From an uncultured Verrucomicrobiae bacterium (GTDB taxonomy: Bacteria; Verrucomicrobiota; Verrucomicrobiia; Chthoniobacterales; JAATET01), in contig CAVXHK010000001.1 of assembly GCA_963761705.1 (NCBI GenBank), positions 259,140 to 323,139 on the forward strand: 64,000 bases of DNA, in the 5' to 3' direction. The first letter of the stretch is position 1. Every line of letters starts with the position of its first letter. This document shows, one piece after another, positions 16,989 through 32,817 of the stretch. The notes below the pieces were generated by a model. The model did not search any database, had not been told where the DNA came from, and worked only from the letters and a program-made list of their open reading frames with translations. Both the position numbers and the translations under genes were made by a program.

Positions 16989-19052
16989 TTACCTGGGTTC
17001 GTCGGGCGAAGGTTGGGGTGCGTCCCCGGCACGGCGGCGATATTCGGCGGCTTTGGTGGGGTCGGGATCGACACCGATGCCGAGTGCGTAGGCTTCGGCC
17101 ATGAGGCTGGCTCCGGCGGCGCTCCCGTCGTTCTCGGCCATGGTGGCGTATTTGATAAAAAGCGATGGCTCGGCCTCGCGGTAGCGGGTGGCGAGCAGGA
17201 GTTGGGCGGATTCGGAATGGGCTTCGGCGGCTTGCTGGAGGGGATCTTCGAGGTCGGCGAAGTCTTCGTCGGTGAGCGGCTCAAGGCTGATGGCGGCGGC
17301 GAGACGCTCCATTTCGGCGGGAAGATCTTCGTCGGAGCGGTCGCGCTCCCAAGCTTGCGCGAGAACGTCGAGGGCGACGCCCGGGCGGTCGGCGGCAGCG
17401 AGGGAGCGGGCGCGCTCAACGGTCGAGTTAGTGGGAGTGGCGGTCGGCTCGGGGGAATCGGTAGCGAACGGATTGGGCGTTGGGGTCGCGGAGGCAGGGG
17501 TCGGAGTCGGGCGGGGCGTCGGGTCTGGTAGCGGCGCGGGCGGAGGGGATTGAACTGAAAAAAGGAGGTACAGAAGAATGAGTCCGGCGAGTCCAACGAG
17601 TGCGCCGACCCAGGCCGGGACCCGGCGGCGGGGGGCGCGAGCAAGTTCGACTCGGTCGATGCGGGGGGTGCTCTTCCCGGGCGGAGGGATGACGACTTCA
17701 TCGGCGGCGGGTGCGCTGACGACTCCGCACGGGTCGCCAACGGCGTCGCCAAGGTCGGCAACGAAGGCGACGGGCGACGGGTGGCTTTTGTTCGGATCGA
17801 GGGCACGGCGGAGCACGCGGTTGGCCGCTGCGGAAAGGTCGGGGATCGGCTGGAACTCCGGGCCGCATTCGCAACCCGGATGGCCGGAGAGCATTTCGTA
17901 AGCGATGATGGCGAGACTCCGGGTCGAGTCGGCGGCGGGTTCGCCGATCTCGAATTGTGGTTGGAGCGCATCGGGTGGGAGTAATTTAACCCGCGCGGAC
18001 GCCATCTTGGGAGCTGGCTGCCCGGCTCGGCGGAGAGCCTCGAGGCCGCCGGCGAGCGAGGTGAGAATCGTCATCGCCGCGGCGACTGAGAGCGATCCCT
18101 CGCGTTCGACGGTCTCGCGAATCGACGGCGCGGTGGTCCATTCGGGCGTCGGCTCGCGGAAGATCGACGGATGGCGGACGTCGCGGATGCTGGCGACGCA
18201 TTGGGCGACGATGACCCGGAGATCGGCGGGCGTCTGCGGGCGTAGAGCGGGGTCTTTCTCCAGCATGATGCGCAGGAGTTTGACGATGGTGGGGGGTTGA
18301 TCGCCGAGGGGCGCAAGCGGGGCGGCCCGGTGGAGATGCTGGCTCATCACCTGGGCGACGGAGCCGCTGAAGGGGGCCTTGCCGGCGAGGAGGTAGTAGA
18401 GGGTGACGCCGAGCGAGTAGATGTCGGAGCGAACGTCGAGTTCGGTTTCTTCGAGCTGCTCGGGGCTGGCGAAGTGCGGGGTGCCGAGGAAGCCTCCCTG
18501 CGTGATGGTGGCGGCGTCGAAGCCGGAGTCGCGGTCGGCGGCTTTCGCGAGGCCGAAGTCGATGACGCGGACGCGGATGTCGTCGGGATCGTGCTCGTCG
18601 TCGCGGGTGAGCATGAGATTCGACGGTTTGATGTCGCGGTGGACGAGGCCTCGTTTGTGCGCGGCGGAGAGGGCGCGGGCGACTTGATCGACGATGTCGA
18701 GGGCGAGGAGCGGTGGGAGATTTCCCTCGCGGACCATGAAGTCCTCGACCGTCTCGCCGTCGATGAACTCCATCGCGTAAAAAAACGCGTCGTCGGCCTG
18801 GCCTAGGTGGAAGACGGTGGCGACGTTCGGGTGGCGGATCGCCGCGGCGGCGCGGGCTTCGCGGAGAAATCGGGCGCGGGCGTTGTCGCTCGTGAGGGTG
18901 GTGGCGTTGATGACCTTCAGCGCGACGGCGCAGTGGAGGCTGGTGTCGTGGGCGCGGTAGGTGATGCCCATGGCGCCGCGGCCGAGTTCCCAGAGCGACC
19001 CGTCGGCACGGCGAAGCACCTCGTAGTGCTCGAACCGAACCGATTCCGCCAT
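16989..19052 (-). CDS. Membrane Ser/Thr protein kinase with extracytoplasmic Pro/Thr linker and Sel1-like repeats
   Basis: Kinase motifs GRGAMGITYRA, AVALKVI, HRDIKPSNLML, DFGLAK. TM segment VPAWVGALVGLAGLILLYLLF. PT-rich linker. C-terminal Sel1-like segment AEAYALGIGVDPDPTKAAEYRRRAG. Confidence 0.88.
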   Translation of the reverse strand: MAESVRFEHYEVLRRADGSLWELGRGAMGITYRAHDTSLHCAVALKVINATTLTSDNARARFLREARAAAAIRHPNVATVFHLGQADDAFFYAMEFIDGETVEDFMVREGNLPPLLALDIVDQVARALSAAHKRGLVHRDIKPSNLMLTRDDEHDPDDIRVRVIDFGLAKAADRDSGFDAATITQGGFLGTPHFASPEQLEETELDVRSDIYSLGVTLYYLLAGKAPFSGSVAQVMSQHLHRAAPLAPLGDQPPTIVKLLRIMLEKDPALRPQTPADLRVIVAQCVASIRDVRHPSIFREPTPEWTTAPSIRETVEREGSLSVAAAMTILTSLAGGLEALRRAGQPAPKMASARVKLLPPDALQPQFEIGEPAADSTRSLAIIAYEMLSGHPGCECGPEFQPIPDLSAAANRVLRRALDPNKSHPSPVAFVADLGDAVGDPCGVVSAPAADEVVIPPPGKSTPRIDRVELARAPRRRVPAWVGALVGLAGLILLYLLFSVQSPPPAPLPDPTPRPTPTPASATPTPNPFATDSPEPTATPTNSTVERARSLAAADRPGVALDVLAQAWERDRSDEDLPAEMERLAAAISLEPLTDEDFADLEDPLQQAAEAHSESAQLLLATRYREAEPSLFIKYATMAENDGSAAGASLMAEAYALGIGVDPDPTKAAEYRRRAGDAPQPSPDEPR

Positions 19053-19064
19053 CGTGGTGTCGGC

Positions 19065-20672
19065 CTACGCCATCGTGACGGCTGCGCGGTCGTCGACGGC
19101 GGCGCTCTTTTCGATGAAGTAGTCGTAACCGCCGGGATACGGGATGATCTGGCCGCCGTTCACGTGGAGGACTTTACTCGCGAGCTGGCGGATGAAGTGG
19201 ACGTCATGCGAGATGAAGACGAGCGTGCCGTCGTATTCCTTGAGCGCCAGGATGAGCGACTCGACGGTGTGGATGTCCAAGTGGGTCGTCGGCTCGTCCA
19301 TGAGGAGAAGGTTTGGTGGGTCGACGAGAAATTTGATCAGGTTAAGTCGGCTTTTTTCGCCGCCGCTGAGGACCGCCGTTTTCTTGTAGATCGCGTCCTT
19401 ACGAAAAAGGAAGGTGCCGAGAATGCCGCGGGCGTCTTCTTCGCGGATGCCGTTGCCAGCTTCGAGGACTTCTTCGAGGATCGTTTTTTCGGGGTCAAGC
19501 GTATCGGCGCGGTGCTGGCTGAAGTAGCCGATCTTCGCGTTGTGACCTTCGTTCACGCGCCCGCTGCCGGGCTGAAGGACGCCGGCCAGGAGCTTGAGGA
19601 GAGTGGATTTGCCCGCACCGTTCGGGCCGACGAGAACGGTGCGCTCGCCGCGTTCGACGGAAAGGCTCAGGCCCTCGTAGACGACGTGGTCGCCGTAGGC
19701 AAAGTCGACGTCCTCGAGCGAGATCGCGCGCTGACCACCGCGCTCGGGCTGCGGGATCTGGAATTTGAAGGGCTTCTTGGGCGGCATCGGCTTCTCGACG
19801 AGTTCCATGCGCTCGAGTTCTTTCTGGCGACTCTGAGCCTGCGCCGCCTTCGACGAGACCGATCGAAATTTATCGATAAATTCGTTGAGCGCCTTGATCT
19901 GCTTTTGCTGATTTTTGTAGGCCGCGATGTTGTTTTCGTAGTTCGCTTGGCGCTTCTCGAGGAACTCGGTGTAGTTCGATTTGTAGGCGACGAGACGCTG
20001 GTTCTCGATCTCGTAAACGGTCTGCGCGAGTTCATCCATGAAGTAGCGGTCATGCGAGATCAGGAGGACCGCGCCGGAGTAGCTCTTGAGGTATTCCTGG
20101 AGCCAGATGAGCGAATTGAGATCGAGGTGGTTGGTCGGTTCGTCCAGCAGGAGGAGGTCGGGTTGCATGACGAGGAGGCGGGCCAGGTGGGCTCGCATCA
20201 CCCAGCCGCCGGAGAGCTCCTTCGCCTTTTTGGTGTAGGTCTTCTCGTTGTAGCCGAGGCCGGCGAGGATGGACTTCGCCTTGGCCTCGACCTGCGGGTC
20301 GTTGAGCGCCTCGAACTGCATGTTCGCCTCGTTGTAATCCGGGCTGTCGACGTTGCCGTCCTGCTCGAAGGCGCGGAGTTTTTTGTCCAGAGCGTCGATC
20401 TCGCCCGCGCGTCCGGTCGCGATGTCCATGACCGTTTCCTCGCCGACGGCTTCGCCCTCCTGAGGCAGGTAGCCGACCATCGTCCACTCATCGCGGTCGA
20501 CGTGGCCGGAGTCGGGGGTGTCGTGTTTGAGAATGATCGAGAAGAGCGTGGATTTCCCGGCGCCATTTGGCCCGACGAGCGCCACCCGCTCGCCGTAGTT
20601 CACCTGCATCCCGGCTTTCTCGAACAGCACGCGCCCCCCATGGCTCTTTTTCAGATCACGAATCGTTAGCAT
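19065..20672 (-). CDS. ABC-F family ATPase (two ABC domains, no TM)
   Basis: Two Walker A motifs (GPNGAGKST twice), two LSGG signatures (LSGGWVMRAHLARL and LSGGEKSRLNLIKFL), and a charged linker between them. Start taken at MLTIRDLKK. Confidence 0.88.
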   Translation of the reverse strand: MLTIRDLKKSHGGRVLFEKAGMQVNYGERVALVGPNGAGKSTLFSIILKHDTPDSGHVDRDEWTMVGYLPQEGEAVGEETVMDIATGRAGEIDALDKKLRAFEQDGNVDSPDYNEANMQFEALNDPQVEAKAKSILAGLGYNEKTYTKKAKELSGGWVMRAHLARLLVMQPDLLLLDEPTNHLDLNSLIWLQEYLKSYSGAVLLISHDRYFMDELAQTVYEIENQRLVAYKSNYTEFLEKRQANYENNIAAYKNQQKQIKALNEFIDKFRSVSSKAAQAQSRQKELERMELVEKPMPPKKPFKFQIPQPERGGQRAISLEDVDFAYGDHVVYEGLSLSVERGERTVLVGPNGAGKSTLLKLLAGVLQPGSGRVNEGHNAKIGYFSQHRADTLDPEKTILEEVLEAGNGIREEDARGILGTFLFRKDAIYKKTAVLSGGEKSRLNLIKFLVDPPNLLLMDEPTTHLDIHTVESLILALKEYDGTLVFISHDVHFIRQLASKVLHVNGGQIIPYPGGYDYFIEKSAAVDDRAAVTMA

Positions 20673-20735
20673 CGGCGGACCGTAGCAGAAGTTTCCCACC
20701 CGGGAAACGGGCATGTGGGAACCCGTCGAAAAACC

Positions 20736-22085
20736 TCAGACCGCCCGTGACGCCGCCAGCCGCCGCTGCGGATTGTCGGCCCAAAACGCCGCGATCGTCA
20801 GCGTCGCCGGCACCACAGCCGTCGCCAAAAATCCCACGTGATAGCTCCCGAGCCAATCCTTCGACAGGCTGAAGGCAAACGGCCCCACCGCGCTCGCCAG
20901 CACGATCGTCGACATGTTTAACCCGCTGATTGCCCCCAGGTGAGTCCGCCCAAAGTACCGCGGCCACACCAACCCGATGCACGTCTGAAACGCCCCGCCC
21001 GATGTCCCCAACCCCGCGATGAGCAGCCACCGGCCGATCGGCTCCGCCATCCACGCCATGCCCAAGCCCGCCGCCGTCAGTCCGGTCGTCAGCAGCATGA
21101 GCACGTATTTCGCCCTCGTTTTATCGGCCACCCAGCCAGAGAAAAAATTCGTGAAGACCCCCACCATCGCCATCGGCAGAAAAAGCCCCAGCACCGCCGA
21201 TTTATCCAACCCCGCCTCCTCACCGATCGACACCACGTGAAACGTGTAGGCCGTGATCGCCAGCGCCTGCCACGCCGTTGCGAAGTTGAAGGCCCAGAAA
21301 GAAAACGTCCGTACCGCCTCGGCCCGCGTGAGGTCCCGCACGATCAATCGGTCCGGATTTTCCGGCTTGCCCGTCGCCTTCCCCGGCCCACCGTCCATCT
21401 CCAGTCCGCATTCCTCCGGATTGTCGCGAAACACCGCCCAGGCAAATCCCGCGACGACCACGACCATCACGCCTCCCATCCCCAGGTAAGCCCCGCGCCA
21501 ACCCACCGCCTCGATGAGGGAGTTCAGCGGTTGCGGAGCCGCCGAAAAAGAAAAGGAAATCGCCACCCCGCTCACCGCGAGAACCAACCCCCGCCGCCGG
21601 TCGAACCATTTCCCCAGCATCGTCCGCGACGTCACCGTCACCATTCCCTGACCCAGAAACCGGACGAGGAAAAATCCCACCGCCATCACGACCAGCGACA
21701 CGGGCCACAGCTCACTCGTCCCCAGCGCCGCCCGGACCCCGCGAGCCACCGAGTCACTCGCCGCCATGAGCGCCAGCACCCCGCCGAAGAGCACCGTCGC
21801 CACCGTCATCGTCCGCCGCGCTCCGAACCGGTCCAGCAGCCGCCCGCCCCGTGGCAGCAGCAGCCCGCTGCCCGTCGTCCCGATCAGGTACGCGAGGCTC
21901 AACTGCACTCGCGTCAGCTCGAGGTTCGCCATGAGCGATTCCGTAAAAACGCTCACCCCCATCGTCTGCCCGGGCAGGCTCGCCACGATCCCGACCGTCG
22001 CCGCAATCAGGATCATCCAGCCGTAAAAGATCGGAAAGCGCCCGGGTCGAAACGGAAAATCCGTGCTCCAAAATCTCGCCCCCAT
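20736..22085 (-). CDS. MFS transporter
   Basis: About 12 hydrophobic helices and an MFS loop motif LLPRGGRLLDRFGARR. The start is uncertain: the ORF extends to 22172, and I prefer MGARFWS at 22085. Confidence 0.75.
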   Translation of the reverse strand: MGARFWSTDFPFRPGRFPIFYGWMILIAATVGIVASLPGQTMGVSVFTESLMANLELTRVQLSLAYLIGTTGSGLLLPRGGRLLDRFGARRTMTVATVLFGGVLALMAASDSVARGVRAALGTSELWPVSLVVMAVGFFLVRFLGQGMVTVTSRTMLGKWFDRRRGLVLAVSGVAISFSFSAAPQPLNSLIEAVGWRGAYLGMGGVMVVVVAGFAWAVFRDNPEECGLEMDGGPGKATGKPENPDRLIVRDLTRAEAVRTFSFWAFNFATAWQALAITAYTFHVVSIGEEAGLDKSAVLGLFLPMAMVGVFTNFFSGWVADKTRAKYVLMLLTTGLTAAGLGMAWMAEPIGRWLLIAGLGTSGGAFQTCIGLVWPRYFGRTHLGAISGLNMSTIVLASAVGPFAFSLSKDWLGSYHVGFLATAVVPATLTIAAFWADNPQRRLAASRAV

Positions 22086-22227
22086 TTTTCGTGAGCCGCG
22101 ACCCTCGTCGCGCGGCTCCGGACGCGCAAGCGCCGAGAAATGCGCGACCGACCCAAGTTTCGCCATTGACACACTCAGCGAAACGTCATTGACGCACCTT
22201 CACACCACTCTTATTGACAACTCCTTC

Positions 22228-23166
22228 ATGAAAACTCAAATCGCTTGCGCCATGGTCCTCTCGGCCCTCGCGCTCTTGACCGTCTCGAATCTCCCGGCGC
22301 AGCAGCTCGCCACCTACGAGTTCGACGGCAACTTCGACGCCGACCCCGTCGACCCGAGCATCACCGCCGGACCGTTCGGTAGCTTCGGGTCGGAAGCCCA
22401 GGTGGGTATCGGCGTCATGGAAGGAAAAAGCTACGGCTACATCCTCCTCAAAGAACGCTCGAAAGACTCCAACGCCAGCCGCTCGAACCAGCAATACGGC
22501 CAATTCACGCTCACCCGTAAGTTCGGCTTTCAGGCCCGCATTTTCAGCATCAGCTTCAAAGCAGCCGCCGCTGGCCAGTTCGATGATGTCACGAACGGCC
22601 TTGCCCTCCGGTGGAGCTTCGACGGCTACAACAGCGACCTCGGGAACTTCACCGTCAACAACGGCCCGCTGAACTTCCGCACGTTCACGATCAATTTCGA
22701 CCAGCCTCCGCTCTTCAACGACTCGGTCACCTTCCGCCTCTACGCCTTCAGCGGTCGCAACGGCCAGTCGATGCGCTTCCAGGATCTGAAAATCAACGGC
22801 GACATCATCCAAAATCCGCCCGATCTCGGCCCGCCGACCGTGACGGTCTTCGGCAACTCGCTGAACAAGAAGACGCGCAAGCGCCGCTACACCCTTTCCG
22901 GGAGTGCCAAGGACGAGAACACCGTCCGGATCGTCCAGATCTCGCCGAACCGCAACGGACCCTATGAAGCCGTCCAAGGCACCGACCGCTGGAGATTCAC
23001 GACCATCCTCGCCCGCGGCAAAACGCGCTTCTTCGTCCGCGCCATCGATTTCGCCGAGAGCGTCTCCAAGCCGATCAAAGTGACCGTTCGCCGCCGCGCC
23101 ATGCGCACCGGCCCGCCACCGACGCCGACGCCGATTCCGACGCCGACTCCGTTCCCGCAGCGGTAA
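22228..23166 (+). CDS. Secreted hypothetical protein with C-terminal Pro/Thr tail
   Basis: Signal-peptide-like MKTQIACAMVLSALALLTVSNLPAQQ. No family recognised. Ends PPPTPTPIPTPTPFPQR. The next gene starts 15 nt downstream. Confidence 0.6.
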   Translation: MKTQIACAMVLSALALLTVSNLPAQQLATYEFDGNFDADPVDPSITAGPFGSFGSEAQVGIGVMEGKSYGYILLKERSKDSNASRSNQQYGQFTLTRKFGFQARIFSISFKAAAAGQFDDVTNGLALRWSFDGYNSDLGNFTVNNGPLNFRTFTINFDQPPLFNDSVTFRLYAFSGRNGQSMRFQDLKINGDIIQNPPDLGPPTVTVFGNSLNKKTRKRRYTLSGSAKDENTVRIVQISPNRNGPYEAVQGTDRWRFTTILARGKTRFFVRAIDFAESVSKPIKVTVRRRAMRTGPPPTPTPIPTPTPFPQR

Positions 23167-23181
23167 ATTCGGATTTCGCGA

Positions 23182-24312
23182 GTGAAAATTCTCGCGCTCA
23201 TTTTCCTCGTCGTTGGGTTTCCGGTCCTCACCTTCGGGCAAGAACGGACGATAACGGACCGCCACGGCAGCGACCTCGGGTCGCTCGCTTCACACGTTCG
23301 CACCGCCCTCGCTGCCGGGGACGCACCCGTCCAGCTCACGCTCGACGCCGGACTCCAGGCCGAGGTCGAGCGCATCCTCGGTCAAGTCGAACGCGGGGCC
23401 GCCATCGTGATCGATCCAGCGACGGGCGACATCCTCGCGATGGTCTCCGTTCCCGGTAGCGGATGGCCCAACCGCGCGATCACCGCCTACGCGCCCGGGG
23501 CCGCGTTCCTTCCGGTCACCGGATTGGTCGGCCTTTCGCGGGGACTCGCCGACCGCAAATTCACCTGCACCGGCGGCGTCAGCTACGGCAACTCCTACCT
23601 GAAGTGCTGGATCGCCAGCCGCGGTTCGCACGGCCCGCTCACTCTCACCGAAGCGCTCGCCGCCTCGTGTGGTCCGTTCTTTTTTCAATCCGGCAACGAC
23701 GCCGGCATCGACGCCTTCACGGCCCTTGGCTCCCGACTCGGCTTGGGAAAAATGACCGGCGTTCCGTTGCTCGGCGAATCAGCCGGCATCCTCCCCGACC
23801 CCGCCTGGCTGGCCAAGCGCTATCCCCGCGACACTTGGCGCGACGGCTACACGGCGAACGTCTCGATCGGCCAGGGATTCGTTCTCACAACGCCCCTCCA
23901 ACTCGTCGGCGTCACCGCGACCATTGCCAACGGTGGCACCGCCCGCCCGCCGCGCCTCCTGCTCACCGACCCCATCGCGGCCGGCGACGACCTCCTCGAC
24001 GACACCCTTACCACCGCCGCCTTCGAACGGGTTCGCCGCGGCATGTGGGAGACGGTCAACGGCTCCGGCTCCGGGAAGTTGGCCCGCATCGACGGGTTCG
24101 AAGTCGCCGGCCGCACCGGCAGCGCGCAAAATCTCCTCCGCCGCCCCGACGGCCAGGTCGTTAAAGACAACCACGCTTGGTTCCTGGCCTTCGCTCCCTA
24201 CGAGGACCCGAAGTTCGCCGTCGTCGTCTTCGTCCAAGGCGCAAAATCCGGTGGCCAAGTCGCCGCCCCCCTCGCCCGCGAGATCCTCGAAGCCGCCCTC
24301 CCCAACCGGTAG
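23182..24312 (+). CDS. Secreted penicillin-binding-protein transpeptidase-fold protein with degenerate catalytic motifs
   Basis: It aligns by eye to the PBP2/FtsI transpeptidase domain (VIDPATGDILAMVSVP, NRAITAYAPG, VSIGQGFVLTTPLQL, AWFLAFAPYEDPKFAVVVFV). The catalytic motifs differ: SxxK reads AAFL, SxN reads SCG, and KTG reads RTG. Confidence 0.75.
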   Translation: MKILALIFLVVGFPVLTFGQERTITDRHGSDLGSLASHVRTALAAGDAPVQLTLDAGLQAEVERILGQVERGAAIVIDPATGDILAMVSVPGSGWPNRAITAYAPGAAFLPVTGLVGLSRGLADRKFTCTGGVSYGNSYLKCWIASRGSHGPLTLTEALAASCGPFFFQSGNDAGIDAFTALGSRLGLGKMTGVPLLGESAGILPDPAWLAKRYPRDTWRDGYTANVSIGQGFVLTTPLQLVGVTATIANGGTARPPRLLLTDPIAAGDDLLDDTLTTAAFERVRRGMWETVNGSGSGKLARIDGFEVAGRTGSAQNLLRRPDGQVVKDNHAWFLAFAPYEDPKFAVVVFVQGAKSGGQVAAPLAREILEAALPNR

Positions 24313-24444
24313 GGCAACCAGTCTCCGCCCGCCCTGCTATTTCCAAGTGCTTCCCGCGGGCGTTTCGGTCGGAGAGTCATGGCGCGAAGCTCACAACGAG
24401 CCAAGACTCCGCAACTTGGCGCGCGCATCCGGGTTTCATTCCGC

Positions 24445-24966
24445 ATGAAAGCCCTCCTCCTCGCTACCAGTCTCCTCCTTTTCGTCACGTCCAGCCAAGC
24501 CAAGCCCCAACCGCCACCCAGCCTGCTCGACGGACGCCCGCCCATGACCGGCGGCCCCTTCAACAAGCTCCCGGACGAACTCCGCGACCGCGTCGAGGCG
24601 GCCCAGCGTAAGGCGATTGAAGAACCCGGCATCCGCGAAGCCCGGGAGAAGATCGCCGAGGAAGCCGCCGCCCTGCGTGACCGCGTGCGCGACGCCATCT
24701 TCGAGATCGACCCCGGTCTTCGCGACGCGATCAAAGCAGAAATGCCCAACGCCAAGCTCGGCGACGAAACCAAGCCAAGACCCGACGGCATCGCCGCCCT
24801 CGAGCCGGAAAAACGCCAGAAGCTCCTGGCCGCCCGCGAAGCCGTGAAAGACGACTCAGCCGTCGTCACCGCCCGCGAAGCCCTCGACCGCGCCAACACC
24901 CCCGAGGACCGCCGATCCGCCGGAGCCGCCTACCGCGCCGCCATGGCCGCGGCGCTCGAGAAATAA
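24445..24966 (+). CDS. Secreted helical hypothetical protein
   Basis: Signal peptide MKALLLATSLLLFVTSSQA followed by charged Ala/Glu/Arg-rich sequence. No family recognised. Confidence 0.55.
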   Translation: MKALLLATSLLLFVTSSQAKPQPPPSLLDGRPPMTGGPFNKLPDELRDRVEAAQRKAIEEPGIREAREKIAEEAAALRDRVRDAIFEIDPGLRDAIKAEMPNAKLGDETKPRPDGIAALEPEKRQKLLAAREAVKDDSAVVTAREALDRANTPEDRRSAGAAYRAAMAAALEK

Positions 24967-24970
24967 TCCA

Positions 24971-25044
24971 GCCGCAAAAAAGGCGCAAAGGGCGCAAAAG
25001 AATTTATTCTCATCGCTTTTGCGCCTCCCGCACCTCTTCGCGGC
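24971..25044. repeat. Gene-less hairpin of the GCGCCTCT-GCGG inverted-repeat family (purine-rich arm, 15-nt loop, pyrimidine-rich arm)
   Basis: GCCGCAAAAAAGGCGCAAAGGGCGCAAAAG, loop aatttattctcatcg, then CTTTTGCGCCTCCCGCACCTCTTCGCGGC. This is an imperfect inverted repeat related to the arms at 42385..42414 and 42797..42826. Confidence 0.7.
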
Positions 25045-25047
25045 CAA

Positions 25048-26226
25048 TTAATAAAACGCCGCAATCGCCCCGACGACCTCGCCGATCTCGTCCTCGCGCA
25101 GCTCCGAGAAGATCGGCAACGCGATCGTCTCCAGCGCCGCGCGCTCCGACTCCGGCAGGCTTCCCTCTCCGTGACCCAGATACGCGAAGCACTCCTGCCG
25201 GTGCAGCGGCACCGGGTAGTAAATTCCATGGCCGATCCCGCGCGCGGCGAGGTGCCGCGAGAGTTCATCCCGCCGCGGAGCGCGCAACACGTATTGGTGG
25301 AAGATGTGATCGCTCGCGACCTGGCCCGCGAATGGCCGGGCGGGCAGCGTCAGCCGATCCGACAATTCCACCGCCGCAAAAGCCTCGCCGTAGCGCTCGG
25401 CGTTTTGCCTCCGCTCCGCGTTCCAGCCGTTCACGTGCGGCAGCTTCACCGACAGGATCGCGGCCTGCAGCGAATCGAGGCGAAAATTCCCCCCCACCTC
25501 GCGGTGGAAATATCGCTCTTCCATCCCGTGGTTCCGCATCAGCTTCAGCCGCCCCGCGTCCTCCGCGCTGGCGCAAGTCGACAGCCCGGCGTCGCCGTAA
25601 GCCCCGAGATTCTTCGCCGGAAAAAAACTGAAATACCCGCTGTCCCCGATGGCCCCGGCCTGGACCGTCCCCGCCGCGCCCGGATACTCCGCGCCGACAG
25701 CCTGCGCGGCGTCCTCGACGACCTTCAACCCGGCCTCCCGCGCAATCCGCATGATTGCATCCATCTCGCAGACCAATCCGAACAGATGCACCGGCACGAT
25801 CGCGCGCACCCGGTTTCCCTTCGGCGTGAAAATTTCCCCACCCTCGCCGCGCCGCATTCCAGCCAGCCGCTCCTCGAGCCGGGCCGGGTCGAGGTTGTAA
25901 GTGCCCGGGTCGATGTCGACAAAAACGGTCTCGATCCCCAGCCGATGCACGCACCCGACGGTCGCGAAAAACGTGTAGGGTGTCGTGATGATCGCGTCCC
26001 CCGGCCCCCAGCCTTCCGCCATCAGGATCGCCAGCCACGCGTCGGTGCCGGACGACATGCCGACCGCGTGACCGCAGCCGGTCGCCTCGACGAACGCCGA
26101 CTCGAGCGCCTCGACCTTCGGGCCGAGGATGAAGGATTGCGACGCGACGACGGATTCGATTTCCGCCGCAACGGCGTCTTTGATTCGCGCGTGTTGGCGC
26201 GAGAGGTCAAGCAGGGGAACGGCCAC
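25048..26226 (-). CDS. DegT/DnrJ/EryC1/StrS family sugar aminotransferase
   Basis: VPLLDLSRQHARIKD...GCGHAVGMSSGTDAWLAIL...GDAIITTPYTFFATV...FFPAKNLGAYGDAG. The ORF extends to 26292, but that would overlap pal by 59 nt. GTG 26226 lies 7 nt after the pal stop. Confidence 0.85.
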   Translation of the reverse strand: MAVPLLDLSRQHARIKDAVAAEIESVVASQSFILGPKVEALESAFVEATGCGHAVGMSSGTDAWLAILMAEGWGPGDAIITTPYTFFATVGCVHRLGIETVFVDIDPGTYNLDPARLEERLAGMRRGEGGEIFTPKGNRVRAIVPVHLFGLVCEMDAIMRIAREAGLKVVEDAAQAVGAEYPGAAGTVQAGAIGDSGYFSFFPAKNLGAYGDAGLSTCASAEDAGRLKLMRNHGMEERYFHREVGGNFRLDSLQAAILSVKLPHVNGWNAERRQNAERYGEAFAAVELSDRLTLPARPFAGQVASDHIFHQYVLRAPRRDELSRHLAARGIGHGIYYPVPLHRQECFAYLGHGEGSLPESERAALETIALPIFSELREDEIGEVVGAIAAFY

Positions 26227-26233
26227 GCTCGCC

Positions 26234-26740
26234 CTAGCGAATGACGCCGAACTCCGCCCGGCGGTTTGCCGCCCAAGCCGCGTCGCCGCCACCCGCGTCG
26301 GCCGGCATCTCCTCGCCGAAGCTCACGGTCTGGATGCGCTGACCGCTGATCCCCATGCCGATGAGCGCCTCGCGGACGGCCTGCGCGCGTCGCTCGCCGA
26401 GGCCACGATTGTATTCTTCCGTCCCGCGTTCATCCGTGAAGCCGGCGATGATGATGTCGCTGTCGATGCCCTGCATCGACGACGCCACAGTGTCGAGCGT
26501 CGTGAACTCCGAGTCCGCCACCTCGACGCTGTCGTAGCCGAAATAAACGGGCGGGAACTGGCTGCGGTTCACCGTCGAGCCGAAGAAATTCGACCCCTCG
26601 ATGCGATCCGGCAGCGGCGTCCCGGTCACGTAGTCGCCGTCGACCCCGACGTAATCGCCGTCGTTCCCGCGTTTGTTCGCGCAGGACGTGAGGCCGACCG
26701 CGACCGCGGTGGTGAGAACCAGAGAAAGAAATCGCTTCAT
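26234..26740 (-). CDS. pal: Peptidoglycan-associated lipoprotein (OmpA-like domain)
   Basis: Lipobox LTSC and OmpA-like core VYFGYDS...IIIAGFTDERGTEEYNRGLGERRAQAVREAL...NRRAEFGVIR. Sits immediately downstream of tolB. Confidence 0.88.
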   Translation of the reverse strand: MKRFLSLVLTTAVAVGLTSCANKRGNDGDYVGVDGDYVTGTPLPDRIEGSNFFGSTVNRSQFPPVYFGYDSVEVADSEFTTLDTVASSMQGIDSDIIIAGFTDERGTEEYNRGLGERRAQAVREALIGMGISGQRIQTVSFGEEMPADAGGGDAAWAANRRAEFGVIR

Positions 26741-26789
26741 GCCGCTATTGAAAACGCCGTTTCGCCCGAAAACTCAATGCTTATCGGAG

Positions 26790-27944
26790 CTACCGCGACC
26801 ACGTCGGCTCCGACACCTTGCCGAGACCCGACACGATCGTAGTCGGACGTCCACTCTGCGTATCGAGTAGAATGATCGCCGATCCCGAGCTGTAGACGAC
26901 GTGGCGCGAGTTGGCACCCCACTCCGGATTTTCCCCGGAAGCGAGGACGCGTGAACTGCCCGACGCGAGGTCAACCATCGCGATGGAAAATCCGCCCGTC
27001 CGCGCCGTGAAGGCGATTTTTTTTCCGTCCGGCGACCAGCTCGGCTCGGTGCAATACCCGAAGCCCGCCCCGATCTTGCGACCCTGTCCGCCACCCGAGC
27101 CGATGCTATACAGCTGCGGACTCCCGCCCTCATCGGATGAGTAAACGATCTCGCTGCCGTTCGGCGACCACGAGGGCGACGACTCCACTCCGCGGGTGCG
27201 GGTGAGCCGCTTCGCGCCACCGCCGTTGGCGCCGACCACGTAGAGCTCGGGATTGCCGTCCTTGCTGATCGAGCACGCGATGCGACCCCCGTCCGGCGAG
27301 AAGGCTGCGCCGCTGTTCGTGCCGGGAAAATTGATGATCTTGTTCCGCGCTCCGCTGCCGAGTTCGACGAGATAAATGTCTGCGTAACCGCTCTGGTAGC
27401 CGGTGTAAGCCAGCTTCCGACCGTCGGGGCTGATCGCCGGGGCGACGCTGATCACGCCGTCGCGCGTGAGCTGCTTCACGTTCGCGCCGTCGTAGTCCGC
27501 GGTGTAGATCTCTTTTTTCCCGGTCTTGGTCGAGACGAACGCGATGGTCGACGACGCGATGCCCGGGTTGCCCGTGATCGTCTCGACGATCTCGTCGGCA
27601 AACTGGTGCGCCCGCTCGCGCGGCGTCCCGGTGTACGTCCCGCTCAACACGCTCGCGCCGCTTCGATCCTTCACCGTCCCGCTCAGCGATCCGCCCGAAG
27701 CCGAGCCCGACACCACGTAGGACGCACTGCCCGGCGACGACATCGAGAACCAGCCCGCGAGCGAAAGATCATTTTTCAACACGGACTCGACCGCCGCCCC
27801 GTCACCTCCGCCGATCCCCTCGACGGCGAGACTCACGGCATCGCTTTTCCGAACGGTGATGGTTGGCGTGTCCTGCGCGACGAGCGTCGGTGCGATCAGA
27901 AGAGCGAAGACGGTAAAAAGAGAGGAGAGCCGGACGGTATTCAT
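26790..27944 (-). CDS. tolB: Tol-Pal system beta-propeller protein TolB
   Basis: Signal peptide MNTVRLSSLFTVFALLIAPTLVAQ and repeated propeller motifs (PAISPDGRKLAYT, AAFSPDGGRIACS, PSWSPNGSEIVYS, PSWSPDGKKIAFT). Confidence 0.88.
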   Translation of the reverse strand: MNTVRLSSLFTVFALLIAPTLVAQDTPTITVRKSDAVSLAVEGIGGGDGAAVESVLKNDLSLAGWFSMSSPGSASYVVSGSASGGSLSGTVKDRSGASVLSGTYTGTPRERAHQFADEIVETITGNPGIASSTIAFVSTKTGKKEIYTADYDGANVKQLTRDGVISVAPAISPDGRKLAYTGYQSGYADIYLVELGSGARNKIINFPGTNSGAAFSPDGGRIACSISKDGNPELYVVGANGGGAKRLTRTRGVESSPSWSPNGSEIVYSSDEGGSPQLYSIGSGGGQGRKIGAGFGYCTEPSWSPDGKKIAFTARTGGFSIAMVDLASGSSRVLASGENPEWGANSRHVVYSSGSAIILLDTQSGRPTTIVSGLGKVSEPTWSR

Positions 27945-28102
27945 GCGGAGATCGGGGGTGGGTTCGGCCCCGGAACGGTCGTCGCAAATCCCTCCCGCGT
28001 TTGCAATCCTCAAAGCGTCGTGGCACACCAGAGCGGCACATGGGCCGACACCGCGCTTTGAATTTCGACGAACCCGCAATCCGCTCGCCCGACTCCGGTG
28101 GA

Positions 28103-30670
<2,568 letters not shown>

Positions 30671-31884: not shown

Positions 31885-32817
31885 TCAAACCCGAACGGTC
31901 CCCGGACGCCGAATCTCCGGCGTTCCGCACCACCGCTTCGACAGATCCACCGGATCCCCCACCCGCACCTCCGCCGCGTCGACCTGGTAAGACCACACCT
32001 CGAACTTCGACAGAATCGCGCTGCCGAAAAACGTGCCAAACGCGCAGTTCACCGCGTCGTAGCCCGCGCAGATCCGGATGCGCGCCGTCCGCGGATCCGC
32101 GAATCGCGCGTCGAACACCTGCCACCGCCCGCCCATGAACACTTCGAAATAAGCGTGGAAATCCATCGGCGTTCCGGGATCCTCGCAGCCGATGTCCGGC
32201 ACGTAACCGCTCACGTAACGCGCCGGCAGATTAAACGTCCGGCACAGCGCCACGCCGGCGTGCGCCAAGTCGCGGCACACTCCGTAACCCCGCTGGATCG
32301 TCTCCCACGCCGACGTGTTCGCGCTGTAGGTCCCCGTCCGATACTCGATGTGCTCGTGCAACCACCCGCAGATCGCGCGGATGCGGGCCAGCCCCTGCGG
32401 AAGGTGGCCAAATTTTTCCCAGGCAAAGTTGAGGAGTTTGTCCGAGTCGCAATATCGCGTTGGCACCGTGTAGCGCAGGATCGACGCCGGCAGCAGGTGG
32501 GGCGGGTGCGGCTGGTCGAGCCAGAGAAAATCCTCACGCGCACTCGGCACGTTAACCAGCGCGTCGTAGCGCATCGCGGTATGCCCCGGCTGCAAGATCA
32601 TCCGGTAGACGATGTTCTCGTGATCGTCTTCGAACTCCGCGGCGTGCGGCTCTGGATCGAACGACACGGCCTCCTGCCGGATCGACTGAAACGGATCCTG
32701 CCGCGGCTTGAGCGTCACCAGAGCCGGCGTCGCCGCGGACGTCTCGTAGGTGATCTCGTAGCCCACCCGCACGGTGAGATCGAGATCAACAACGGGCAGA
32801 TCGGCAGTGATTTCCAT
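31885..32817 (-). CDS. Transglutaminase-like family protein (Bact_transglu_N + transglutaminase core)
   Basis: GYGVCRDLAHAGVALCRTFNLPARYVSGY...HAYFEVFMGGRWQVFD matches a Cys-His-Asp core arrangement. Confidence 0.8.
   Translation of the reverse strand: MEITADLPVVDLDLTVRVGYEITYETSAATPALVTLKPRQDPFQSIRQEAVSFDPEPHAAEFEDDHENIVYRMILQPGHTAMRYDALVNVPSAREDFLWLDQPHPPHLLPASILRYTVPTRYCDSDKLLNFAWEKFGHLPQGLARIRAICGWLHEHIEYRTGTYSANTSAWETIQRGYGVCRDLAHAGVALCRTFNLPARYVSGYVPDIGCEDPGTPMDFHAYFEVFMGGRWQVFDARFADPRTARIRICAGYDAVNCAFGTFFGSAILSKFEVWSYQVDAAEVRVGDPVDLSKRWCGTPEIRRPGTVRV

Follow-up and report, generated by a model that had tools for sequence, protein, structure and literature searches.

A leader-bearing PBP2-type transpeptidase homolog of Verrucomicrobiota with degenerate catalytic motifs and relatives fused to BlaR1-type M56 proteases

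Results

A PBP2 homolog with replaced catalytic motifs

We analyzed a 64,000-nt stretch of the genome of an uncultured Verrucomicrobiae bacterium from soil (GenBank assembly GCA_963761705.1, contig CAVXHK010000001.1, positions 259,140 to 323,139; hereafter the window, with its first letter as position 1) and found that the gene at 23182..24312 (+) encodes a catalytically degenerate homolog of penicillin-binding protein 2 (PBP2). The gene has a GTG start, and its product, which is probably exported, is 376 aa in length. All three catalytic motifs of the product are altered, the alterations are conserved among its relatives, and the same module occurs on BlaR1-type proteases of the M56 family. 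On balance, we take the protein to be a functional, noncatalytic descendant of PBP2: an exported transpeptidase-fold module that binds or senses its ligand reversibly and without acylation.

An initial annotation made from the sequence alone had assigned the product to the PBP2/FtsI-type transpeptidases, and the assignment was borne out by domain, family, and structure comparisons. PF00905 was the sole Pfam domain detected, with a match covering the full profile (positions 1–299 of 299; E = 5.8e-47). Among NCBIfam families, TIGR03423 (pbp2_mrdA) scored best with 268 bits, though the match was confined to the C-terminal half of the model and the score lies under the equivalog threshold of 455. 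MrdA/PBP2 structures ranked first in a phmmer search of Protein Data Bank (PDB) sequences, led by Pseudomonas aeruginosa MrdA (7kis; E = 7e-38). An AlphaFold2 model built from a 53-sequence alignment had a predicted local distance difference test score (pLDDT) of 94.2 and a predicted TM-score (pTM) of 0.91, and its top Foldseek matches in the PDB were all class-B PBP transpeptidase domains (E ~1e-28, TM 0.73–0.80), with SpoVD (7rcz) first and Escherichia coli PBP3 (7ono) and P. aeruginosa PBP2 (7kis) among the others. The fold, like the locations of the motifs (below), agreed with that of class-B PBPs.

By sequence and fold, the closest known family is PBP2/MrdA (TIGR03423; 7kis, 8zpc, 6tii, and 6g9p), with which the protein shares PF00905 end to end, the zinc (Zn)-ligand positions, and the GxTANxSIGQG, TPLQ, and TGTAQ signatures. 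It differs from that family in having no transmembrane anchor, no PF03717 domain, no intact motifs, no equivalog-level score, and no mreBCD/rodA context. Identity to the PBP2s of Chthoniobacterales is 47–52%, and by similarity the protein appears to derive from the verrucomicrobial PBP2 lineage; its 376 aa compare with 700–770 aa in the PBP2s of Chthoniobacterales. Databases label its relatives “penicillin-binding protein 2.”

HMMER alignments to MrdA structures and the AlphaFold2 model gave the same register for all three motifs. At motif 1 (23500..23511, +), A107-A-F-L110 replaces S-x-x-K: the alignment sets “aYaPGaaflP” opposite “lYpPGStvKP,” and in the model A107 forms the N-terminus of helix 106–119. 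At motif 2 (23665..23673, +), S162-C-G164 replaces S-x-N/D, with “aaSCGpfFf” opposite “imSCDtyFY” and S162 modeled in the loop joining helices 155–161 and 164–174. At motif 3 (24112..24120, +), R311-T-G313 replaces K-T-G on strand β3, with “aGrTGsAQ” opposite “aGKTGTAQ”; the modeled strand spans residues 309–320. In the model, then, A107, S162, and R311 occupy the canonical sites of the three PBP motifs, and the coordinates given for them in the initial annotation were exact (residue 107 starts at 23500, residue 162 at 23665, and residue 311 at 24112). The nucleophilic Ser and the general-base Lys of motif 1 are both gone (A107 and L110), whereas motif 2 has kept its Ser (S162) and lost its Asn/Asp (G164). 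Following motif 3, S314-A-Q316 is conserved.

A Ser-x-x-Lys elsewhere in register, named by the initial annotation as one finding that would speak against it, was scanned for, and none was found. SYLK at residues 138–141 is out of register and lies on a β-hairpin strand, and its Ser is a Lys in most relatives. KSG at residues 355–357 is out of register as a KTG motif and belongs to a loop that canonical PBP2s also carry beside the true KTG, and SGN at residues 170–172 is out of register as SxN. Acylation is impossible because Ala, Leu, Arg, and Gly stand where the nucleophilic Ser, the two active-site Lys, and the Asn/Asp of motif 2 would be and no substitute motif is in register; the earlier claim that acyl-enzyme chemistry had been lost therefore held. 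For the 376-aa protein, the sequence predicts neither covalent β-lactam binding nor DD-transpeptidase activity.

Conservation of the degenerate state

Database searches and motif tables placed the protein in a family of short, leader-bearing members (~355–480 aa) without PF03717; the named taxa are Chthoniobacterales or other verrucomicrobial groups. Its motifs range from intact to fully replaced. Four members (P0033, P0154, P0159, and P0161) retain STFK/SCN/KTG; they may act in the periplasm as soluble DD-peptidases, and the degenerate family may have started from proteins of this kind. Some of the intact short sequences may represent fragments of genes. A single motif is altered in P0013 (STYK/SCG/KTG) and P0145 (ATYK/SCG/KTG); the motif-1 Lys is lost in P0016, P0128, and P0131 (STF[MT]/SCG/KTG), and P0121 combines this loss with the change from Lys to Arg in motif 3 (SAFL/SCG/RTG). 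The fully degenerate pattern A-x-x-L/SC[GN]/RTG is found in ~20–25 short leader-bearing relatives at 40–73% identity. A survey of orthologs had been suggested as a check on the substitutions, and it found them conserved in the orthologs and in ~25 more distant relatives.

We compared 25 degenerate relatives with 85 canonical PBP2s. The first and last residues of motif 1 are Ala at a frequency of 0.96 and Leu at 0.88 in the degenerate group and Ser and Lys, both at 1.00, in the canonical one; the first residue of motif 3 is Arg at 0.92 versus Lys at 1.00. The sole consistent switches within the transpeptidase domain are S107A, Y109F, K110L, K311R, and, in part of the group, N164G, all of them at catalytic positions or beside one; two more, at residues 38 and 304, fall elsewhere than in the motifs. 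At another 72 positions, both groups have the same residue with conservation of 90% or more; these kept positions include S162, T312, G313, S/T314, Q316, C129, C142, H150, and C163, of which S162 and C163 are invariant in degenerate and canonical proteins alike. The degenerate group has gained no new conserved polar residue, the switches going to Ala, Leu, Phe, Arg, and Gly. As judged from these alignments, the change is surgical, with the chemistry removed and the architecture retained.

The replacements at motifs 1 and 3 are coupled. In counts over all architectures, which ignore shared ancestry, proteins that keep the motif-1 Lys have Lys in motif 3 in 110 of 112 sequences and Arg in 0 of 112, and those with a motif-1 Leu have Arg in 24 of 35. 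The coupling of K110L and K311R may preserve one positive charge with which the cleft could hold a carboxylate, even as the catalytic pair is lost.

Orthologs with the identical AAFL/SCG/RTG pattern were found in two species-representative metagenome-assembled genomes of uncultured Verrucomicrobiae, at 71% (L008) and 65% (L009) identity, and the reading frame is intact in all three species. Nei–Gojobori estimates gave rough ratios of nonsynonymous to synonymous substitution rates (dN/dS) of 0.18 against L008 and 0.21 against L009 for the PBP-like gene, compared with 0.16–0.19 for the upstream gene, 0.19–0.31 for the downstream gene, and 0.05–0.12 for the neighboring ABC-F, Pal, and DegT genes. 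By these estimates, the PBP-like gene is under purifying selection. Its identity to the orthologs (65–71%) is lower than that of ABC-F and Pal (93–95%). As an enzyme homolog that has lost its catalytic residues and is kept by purifying selection, it falls within the operational definition of a pseudo-enzyme.

On the contigs that carry L008 and L009, there are also genes for full-length PBP2s of the canonical kind, with STYK/SCN/KTG motifs (L013 and L011), L013 being placed behind mreB, mreC, and a probable mreD. Because these sister contigs encode a canonical mrdA as well, the degenerate protein is an extra paralog and not the sole PBP2, the coexistence being seen in two sister genomes.

We also scanned more widely for the degenerate form. 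With the degenerate-group profile run against species genomes, 77 of the 80 best loci, ranked by similarity, were canonical PBP2s. A DNA-level scan of metagenome contigs for A-P-G-A-[AT]-F-L-P-[VI] returned a single true homolog (L173) among at least 120 loci listed, the rest being chance matches.

The same module on M56 proteases

Using the degenerate-group profile, we carried out an exhaustive hidden Markov model search of 1.84 billion representative proteins and counted domain architectures among the best 150. The module of the short proteins, including the headless N-terminal remnant described below, matched contiguously within larger proteins, starting from approximately residue 340–365 or 560–640. 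These proteins, which numbered 51 of the best 150 and were drawn as a class from P0232–P0372, combine Peptidase_M56 with a pedestal (a remnant or the full PF03717) and PF00905. At least one catalytic residue was missing in 33 of the 51 (65%) but in only 4 of 62 PBP2s of canonical architecture (Fisher P = 3e-11, with shared ancestry ignored), while the HExxH motif of the protease was present in 49 of the 51.

Several of the fused proteins have a pattern resembling that of the window protein: AVFL/SCN/RTG in P0235, ATFL/SCN/RTG in P0269, SAFL/SCN/RTG in P0268, and AAFL/SCH/QTG in P0241. Three of them (P0232, P0233, and P0235) share its headless N-terminal remnant. Across the fused relatives, the Ser position is variously occupied by Ala, Gly, Val, or Gln and the Lys position by residues such as Leu, Met, Thr, Val, and Asn. 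The 1270-aa protein P0234 has a GAFL/SCG/RTG transpeptidase domain fused directly to ankyrin repeats. The transpeptidase module, M56, and ankyrin repeats associate recurrently, in P0234 and again at the P0007 locus (below). We found no description of M56–PBP2 fusions or of naturally degenerate PBP2-type domains in the searchable literature, which is an absence of evidence only.

N-terminus and probable zinc site

Residues 1–20 (MKILALIFLVVGFPVLTFGQ; 23182..23241, +) form a hydrophobic leader in place of the transmembrane anchor of PBP2. The leader consists of MK followed by 18 uncharged residues and then G-Q-E, and it is modeled as a helix of low pLDDT; 16 family members have comparable leaders that end in AxA-like sequences. 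From its sequence, we consider it a probable Sec signal peptide. The following residues, ~21–66 (23242..23379, +), contain a remnant of the class-B pedestal-linker boxes, I-T-D-R-H-G ... L-T-L-D-A-G-L-Q, which correspond to IxDRNG, YPFxALAAH, and LTLDARIQ in the family alignment. Pfam found no match to the PF03717 pedestal in the 376-aa protein, which has no transmembrane anchor either, and the head and anchor subdomains are deleted. The initial annotation had described the N-terminal pedestal domain as absent, which is correct for PF03717 and the anchor and has to be qualified for the linker boxes that persist.

The β-hairpin region contains a putative structural Zn site (23566..23670, +) made up of C129 (23566–23568), C142 (23605–23607), H150 (23629–23631), and C163 (23668–23670). 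In the HMMER alignment, these residues fall opposite D350, D365, H371, and C384 of Acinetobacter baumannii PBP2, which hold a structural Zn that ties the β-hairpin to the SxN motif and of which the counterpart of C163 is shielded from solvent (PMC9974482). The four residues are invariant or nearly so in degenerate and canonical relatives, including the canonical PBP2s of Chthoniobacterales. They probably form a structural Zn site, and the alignments suggest that Zn-binding class-B PBPs extend to Verrucomicrobiota.

The three-gene cluster

The PBP-like gene lies between two genes for leader-bearing or exported proteins, and the order 312 aa, PBP-like, 195 aa is kept in the window, L008, and L009. 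The upstream gene (up312; 22228..23166, +) encodes an exported protein, and its stop precedes the start of the PBP-like gene at 23182 by 15 nt, as the initial annotation had it. Identity of up312 among the three species is 70–81%. The protein had no sequence match in Pfam, NCBIfam, or the PDB; its AlphaFold2 model (pLDDT 78.5) shows a β-jelly-roll, an Ig-like domain, and a Pro/Thr-rich tail, and Foldseek returned only generic β-sandwich neighbors of the CBM, MAM, and FN3 types. The up312 family is narrow: a search of 5.8 billion proteins gave 9 matches, each of which has a conserved C-terminal tail rich in Pro and Thr (PTPTPxP). The downstream gene (down195; 24379..24966, +) starts 66 nt after the PBP-like gene and encodes a small, leader-bearing protein rich in Glu, Arg, and Ala. 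It is found at this place in L008 and L009 too (66–70% identity) and has no relative in Pfam, NCBIfam, or PDB sequences. The pairing with the upstream protein that the initial annotation had proposed is therefore real in three species, but it is restricted to a few close relatives and does not extend to the whole family.

The flanks of the cluster are also shared, with ABC-F at one end and DegT/Pal/TolB at the other, the latter as far as the fetched sequence reaches. Besides the exported proteins, the neighbors of the PBP-like gene are an MFS transporter, ABC-F, DegT, and Pal/TolB, and there is no mreBCD/rodA context. A promoter and terminator scan of positions 21900–25200 found nothing beyond the expectation from shuffled sequences (four terminator-like sites found versus 4.0 expected). 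A GC-rich hairpin with a 6-bp stem, CGCGAG-TGAAAATT-CTCGCG (23177..23196, +), spans the GTG start of the PBP-like gene. It could influence the initiation of translation or, with terminator-like sites occurring at chance rate, may mean nothing.

Gene neighborhoods of other free-standing members

The neighborhoods of the other free-standing members differ between subgroups. NuoE/NuoF genes lie upstream of P0067, P0124, and P0129, with M20 and transglutaminase genes following in two of the three. P0003 and P0123 have PSCyt/PSD1 genes and NAD synthase nearby, P0008 has an overlapping T2SSE ATPase gene with YkuD (L,D-transpeptidase) and bactofilin genes close to it, and P0121 stands alongside a large protein that faintly matches CsgG. 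At the P0007 locus (L005:6498-10504; contig k141_1640685), a gene for a BlaI-type repressor is followed by P0007, an M56 gene, and two ankyrin-repeat genes; P0009, the closest relative of P0007, has no BlaI or M56 neighbors.

Synteny of the window with the P0067/P0124 subgroup through M20 and transglutaminase genes was considered and found too weak, the M20 proteins being nonorthologous (27% identity over part of the length). A transglutaminase-like gene of the window (31885..32817, −) has 36% full-length identity to the gene two downstream of the PBP-like gene in L004 and L210, a similarity that may be accidental or may be the last trace of a shared gene order.

Other features of the window

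Farther upstream, a gene at 16989..19052 (−) encodes a 687-aa protein with an N-terminal Ser/Thr kinase domain (PF00069; E = 9e-45) and an uncharacterized C-terminal part of 400 aa; it adjoins the ABC-F ATPase gene at 19065..20714. On the other side of the cluster, the region 25048..28079 (−) contains a DegT/DnrJ-type aminotransferase gene directly downstream of pal (OmpA family; 26234..26740) and tolB (26790..28079), an order also seen in L002 and L008. The open reading frame (ORF) of the aminotransferase overlaps the start of pal by ~59 nt, and its true start is probably further in. A hybrid histidine kinase gene (28001..30670, +), with PAS domains, HisKA, HATPase_c, and a receiver, is divergent from tolB and found in the same place in L002.

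Discussion

If the window protein is the binding or sensing module that we favor, it would, after Sec export, reside in the periplasm, where the kept and Zn-stabilized cleft would bind a D-Ala-D-Ala-type stem peptide or a related small molecule noncovalently, the charge of Arg311 and the β3 backbone holding the terminal carboxylate. D-Ala-D-Ala or the stem peptide is the obvious candidate because the cleft is derived from that of PBP2. The output would be passed on through protein contacts. In the M56-fused relatives, it would consist of M56 activation and cleavage of a BlaI-type repressor, following BlaR1 except for the acylation step. The best partner candidates of the free-standing window protein would be the two co-conserved exported neighbors. 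Contact in trans with a sensor-less M56 encoded elsewhere is conceivable but pure conjecture, with none encoded in the window. The initial annotation had suggested a binding, sensing, or scaffolding role for a muropeptide-like ligand; the role gains from the purifying selection, the conserved substitutions, and the presence of the same module on M56 transducers, whereas the ligand is something we infer.

Several observations weigh against this reading. The argument for stem-peptide binding comes solely from the retained cleft residues, and fold stability by itself could account for the conservation of the 72 positions. The dN/dS estimates are approximate, since dS spans 0.6–1.2 and, at 0.9–1.0, is near saturation. 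There is no M56 or BlaI ORF in the 64-kb window or at 11 other loci of free-standing members, the sister loci likewise have no BlaI-like ORF, and the M56 beside P0007 is truncated and has RELIH instead of HExxH; together with the context of P0009, this weakened the idea of a split BlaR1 that the P0007 locus had raised. A conserved partner for the whole family was likewise rejected, the neighborhoods being specific to subgroups. In neighbor-joining trees, the free-standing and M56-fused modules group with bootstrap values of 0.3–0.5 at the deeper nodes, and with such weak support we make no claim on whether the degenerate state has a common origin or arose by convergence.

Among known systems, the window protein may by analogy work most like the sensor domain of BlaR1/MecR1: both place a domain of the penicillin-binding fold outside the membrane, and homologs of the window protein sit behind M56, as does the penicillin-binding sensor domain in Staphylococcus aureus BlaR1 (PMC9834060). 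The window protein is not itself a BlaR1 because it has no M56 and no blaI neighbor, is of class B and not class-D-like, and cannot be acylated. Its module is PBP2-type with a pedestal remnant, whereas the BlaR1 sensor resembles class-D β-lactamases, and BlaR1 signals by acylation of a Ser where the window protein has Ala. “Atypical” BlaR orthologs without a sensor domain are described for P. aeruginosa (PvmS) and for Mycobacterium tuberculosis and Mycobacterium abscessus (bioRxiv 10.64898/2026.08.03.742534). These are M56/BlaI modules whose sensing is other than β-lactam acylation, and a free sensor could in principle serve such proteins in trans. The window protein also resembles the Zn-binding class-B PBPs of A. 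baumannii (PBP2; PMC9974482) and Clostridioides difficile (PBP2/SpoVD; PMC9334274), in which four ligand positions link the hairpin to the x residue of SxN. Those proteins are active, however, and the predicted Cys/Cys/His/Cys set of the window protein differs from their Asp/Asp/His/Cys.

A wider proposal, which we offer tentatively and as a possibility only, is that the degenerate modules are nonacylating PBP2-fold receptors that read the status of the cell wall and not antibiotics. With Ser/Lys/Lys converted to Ala/Leu/Arg, they would detect un-cross-linked D-Ala-D-Ala stems or released muropeptides, either fused to M56 or free and acting in trans, and would form an undescribed pathway in Verrucomicrobiota and other PVC-type bacteria.

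The nearest rival to the binding or sensing model is a regulator or scaffold docked on the peptidoglycan of pentapeptide-rich nascent wall, where it would act on other envelope proteins (the co-encoded pair, hydrolases, or L,D-transpeptidases, for example) by recruiting, activating, or shielding them. The retained cleft fits this equally well. The cluster with two exported proteins is kept in three species, the CBM/Ig-like β-sandwich domains of up312 are typical of binding or adhesin modules, P0008 lies near YkuD and bactofilin genes, and most free-standing members have no M56 or BlaI nearby. There is also a precedent by analogy in the catalytically dead LytM factors EnvC and NlpD, which control amidases. 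Like these, the window protein is an exported homolog of a peptidoglycan enzyme that is conserved despite the loss of its catalytic residues and presumably acts by binding, although EnvC and NlpD belong to an unrelated fold and family. On the other hand, hydrolase or synthase genes are not regularly found next to the free-standing members, the head and anchor with which class-B PBPs contact MreC and SEDS partners are deleted, and the closest noncanonical relatives by profile score are signal transducers. We regard this explanation as doubtful, though deserving of attention.

The remaining explanations appear less probable still. As an exported, soluble copy of a drug-target domain with its cleft architecture and Zn site retained, and from a family of soil and freshwater Verrucomicrobiota living among antibiotic producers, the protein might act as a decoy or sponge, its dead cleft binding β-lactam-like antibiotics or a competitor's toxin noncovalently and shielding the true PBPs. 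From PBP enzymology, however, β-lactam affinity without acylation should be low and stoichiometric sequestration costly, and the gene neighborhoods contain no consistent toxin, secretion-system, or resistance genes, which makes a decoy unlikely; no PADLOC or immunity-family evidence emerged either, though no search aimed at it was made. We consider it more improbable yet that the protein is still an enzyme, a hydrolase or esterase working through S162, C163, or the metal site. The β-lactamase/PBP fold has repeatedly evolved new hydrolytic activities, which lends the idea some general plausibility; S162 and C163 are invariant, and the putative metal site lies beside the cleft. But these residues, like the Cys/His ligands, are just as invariant in canonical PBP2s, where the counterpart of C163 is a shielded Zn ligand (PMC9974482), the degenerate group has no new conserved polar residue, and the diversity of Ser and Lys replacements in the fused relatives argues against a new, defined catalytic set. 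A truncated duplicate of mrdA, inactivated and in the course of being lost, would account for the missing catalytic motifs, the deleted N-terminal module, and the faster evolution relative to the housekeeping neighbors. Such a nonfunctional relic is the least probable of all and already contradicted by the intact frame in three species with dN/dS of ~0.2, the replacements conserved over ~25 relatives down to 40% identity, the 72 positions conserved as in active PBP2, the confident AlphaFold2 model, and the recruitment of the module into M56 receptors with intact protease motifs.

The known roles of penicillin-binding folds are those of an enzyme and, in BlaR1 and MecR1, of a sensor that must be acylated by a β-lactam. 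The proteins described here would represent a third use of the fold, in which the catalytic residues are precisely removed and the cleft, a probable Zn site, and one positive charge are kept. For specialists, the surprising part is the wider pattern of nonacylatable PBP2-fold sensors on BlaR1-type receptors. The automatic annotation of such proteins as “penicillin-binding protein 2” inflates PBP counts and misassigns drug targets in metagenome-derived genomes. If the module does bind wall peptides reversibly, it would provide a handle on the monitoring of the cell wall in soil and freshwater Verrucomicrobiota and, β-lactam acylation being impossible, would explain what BlaR1-like receptors outside Firmicutes sense.

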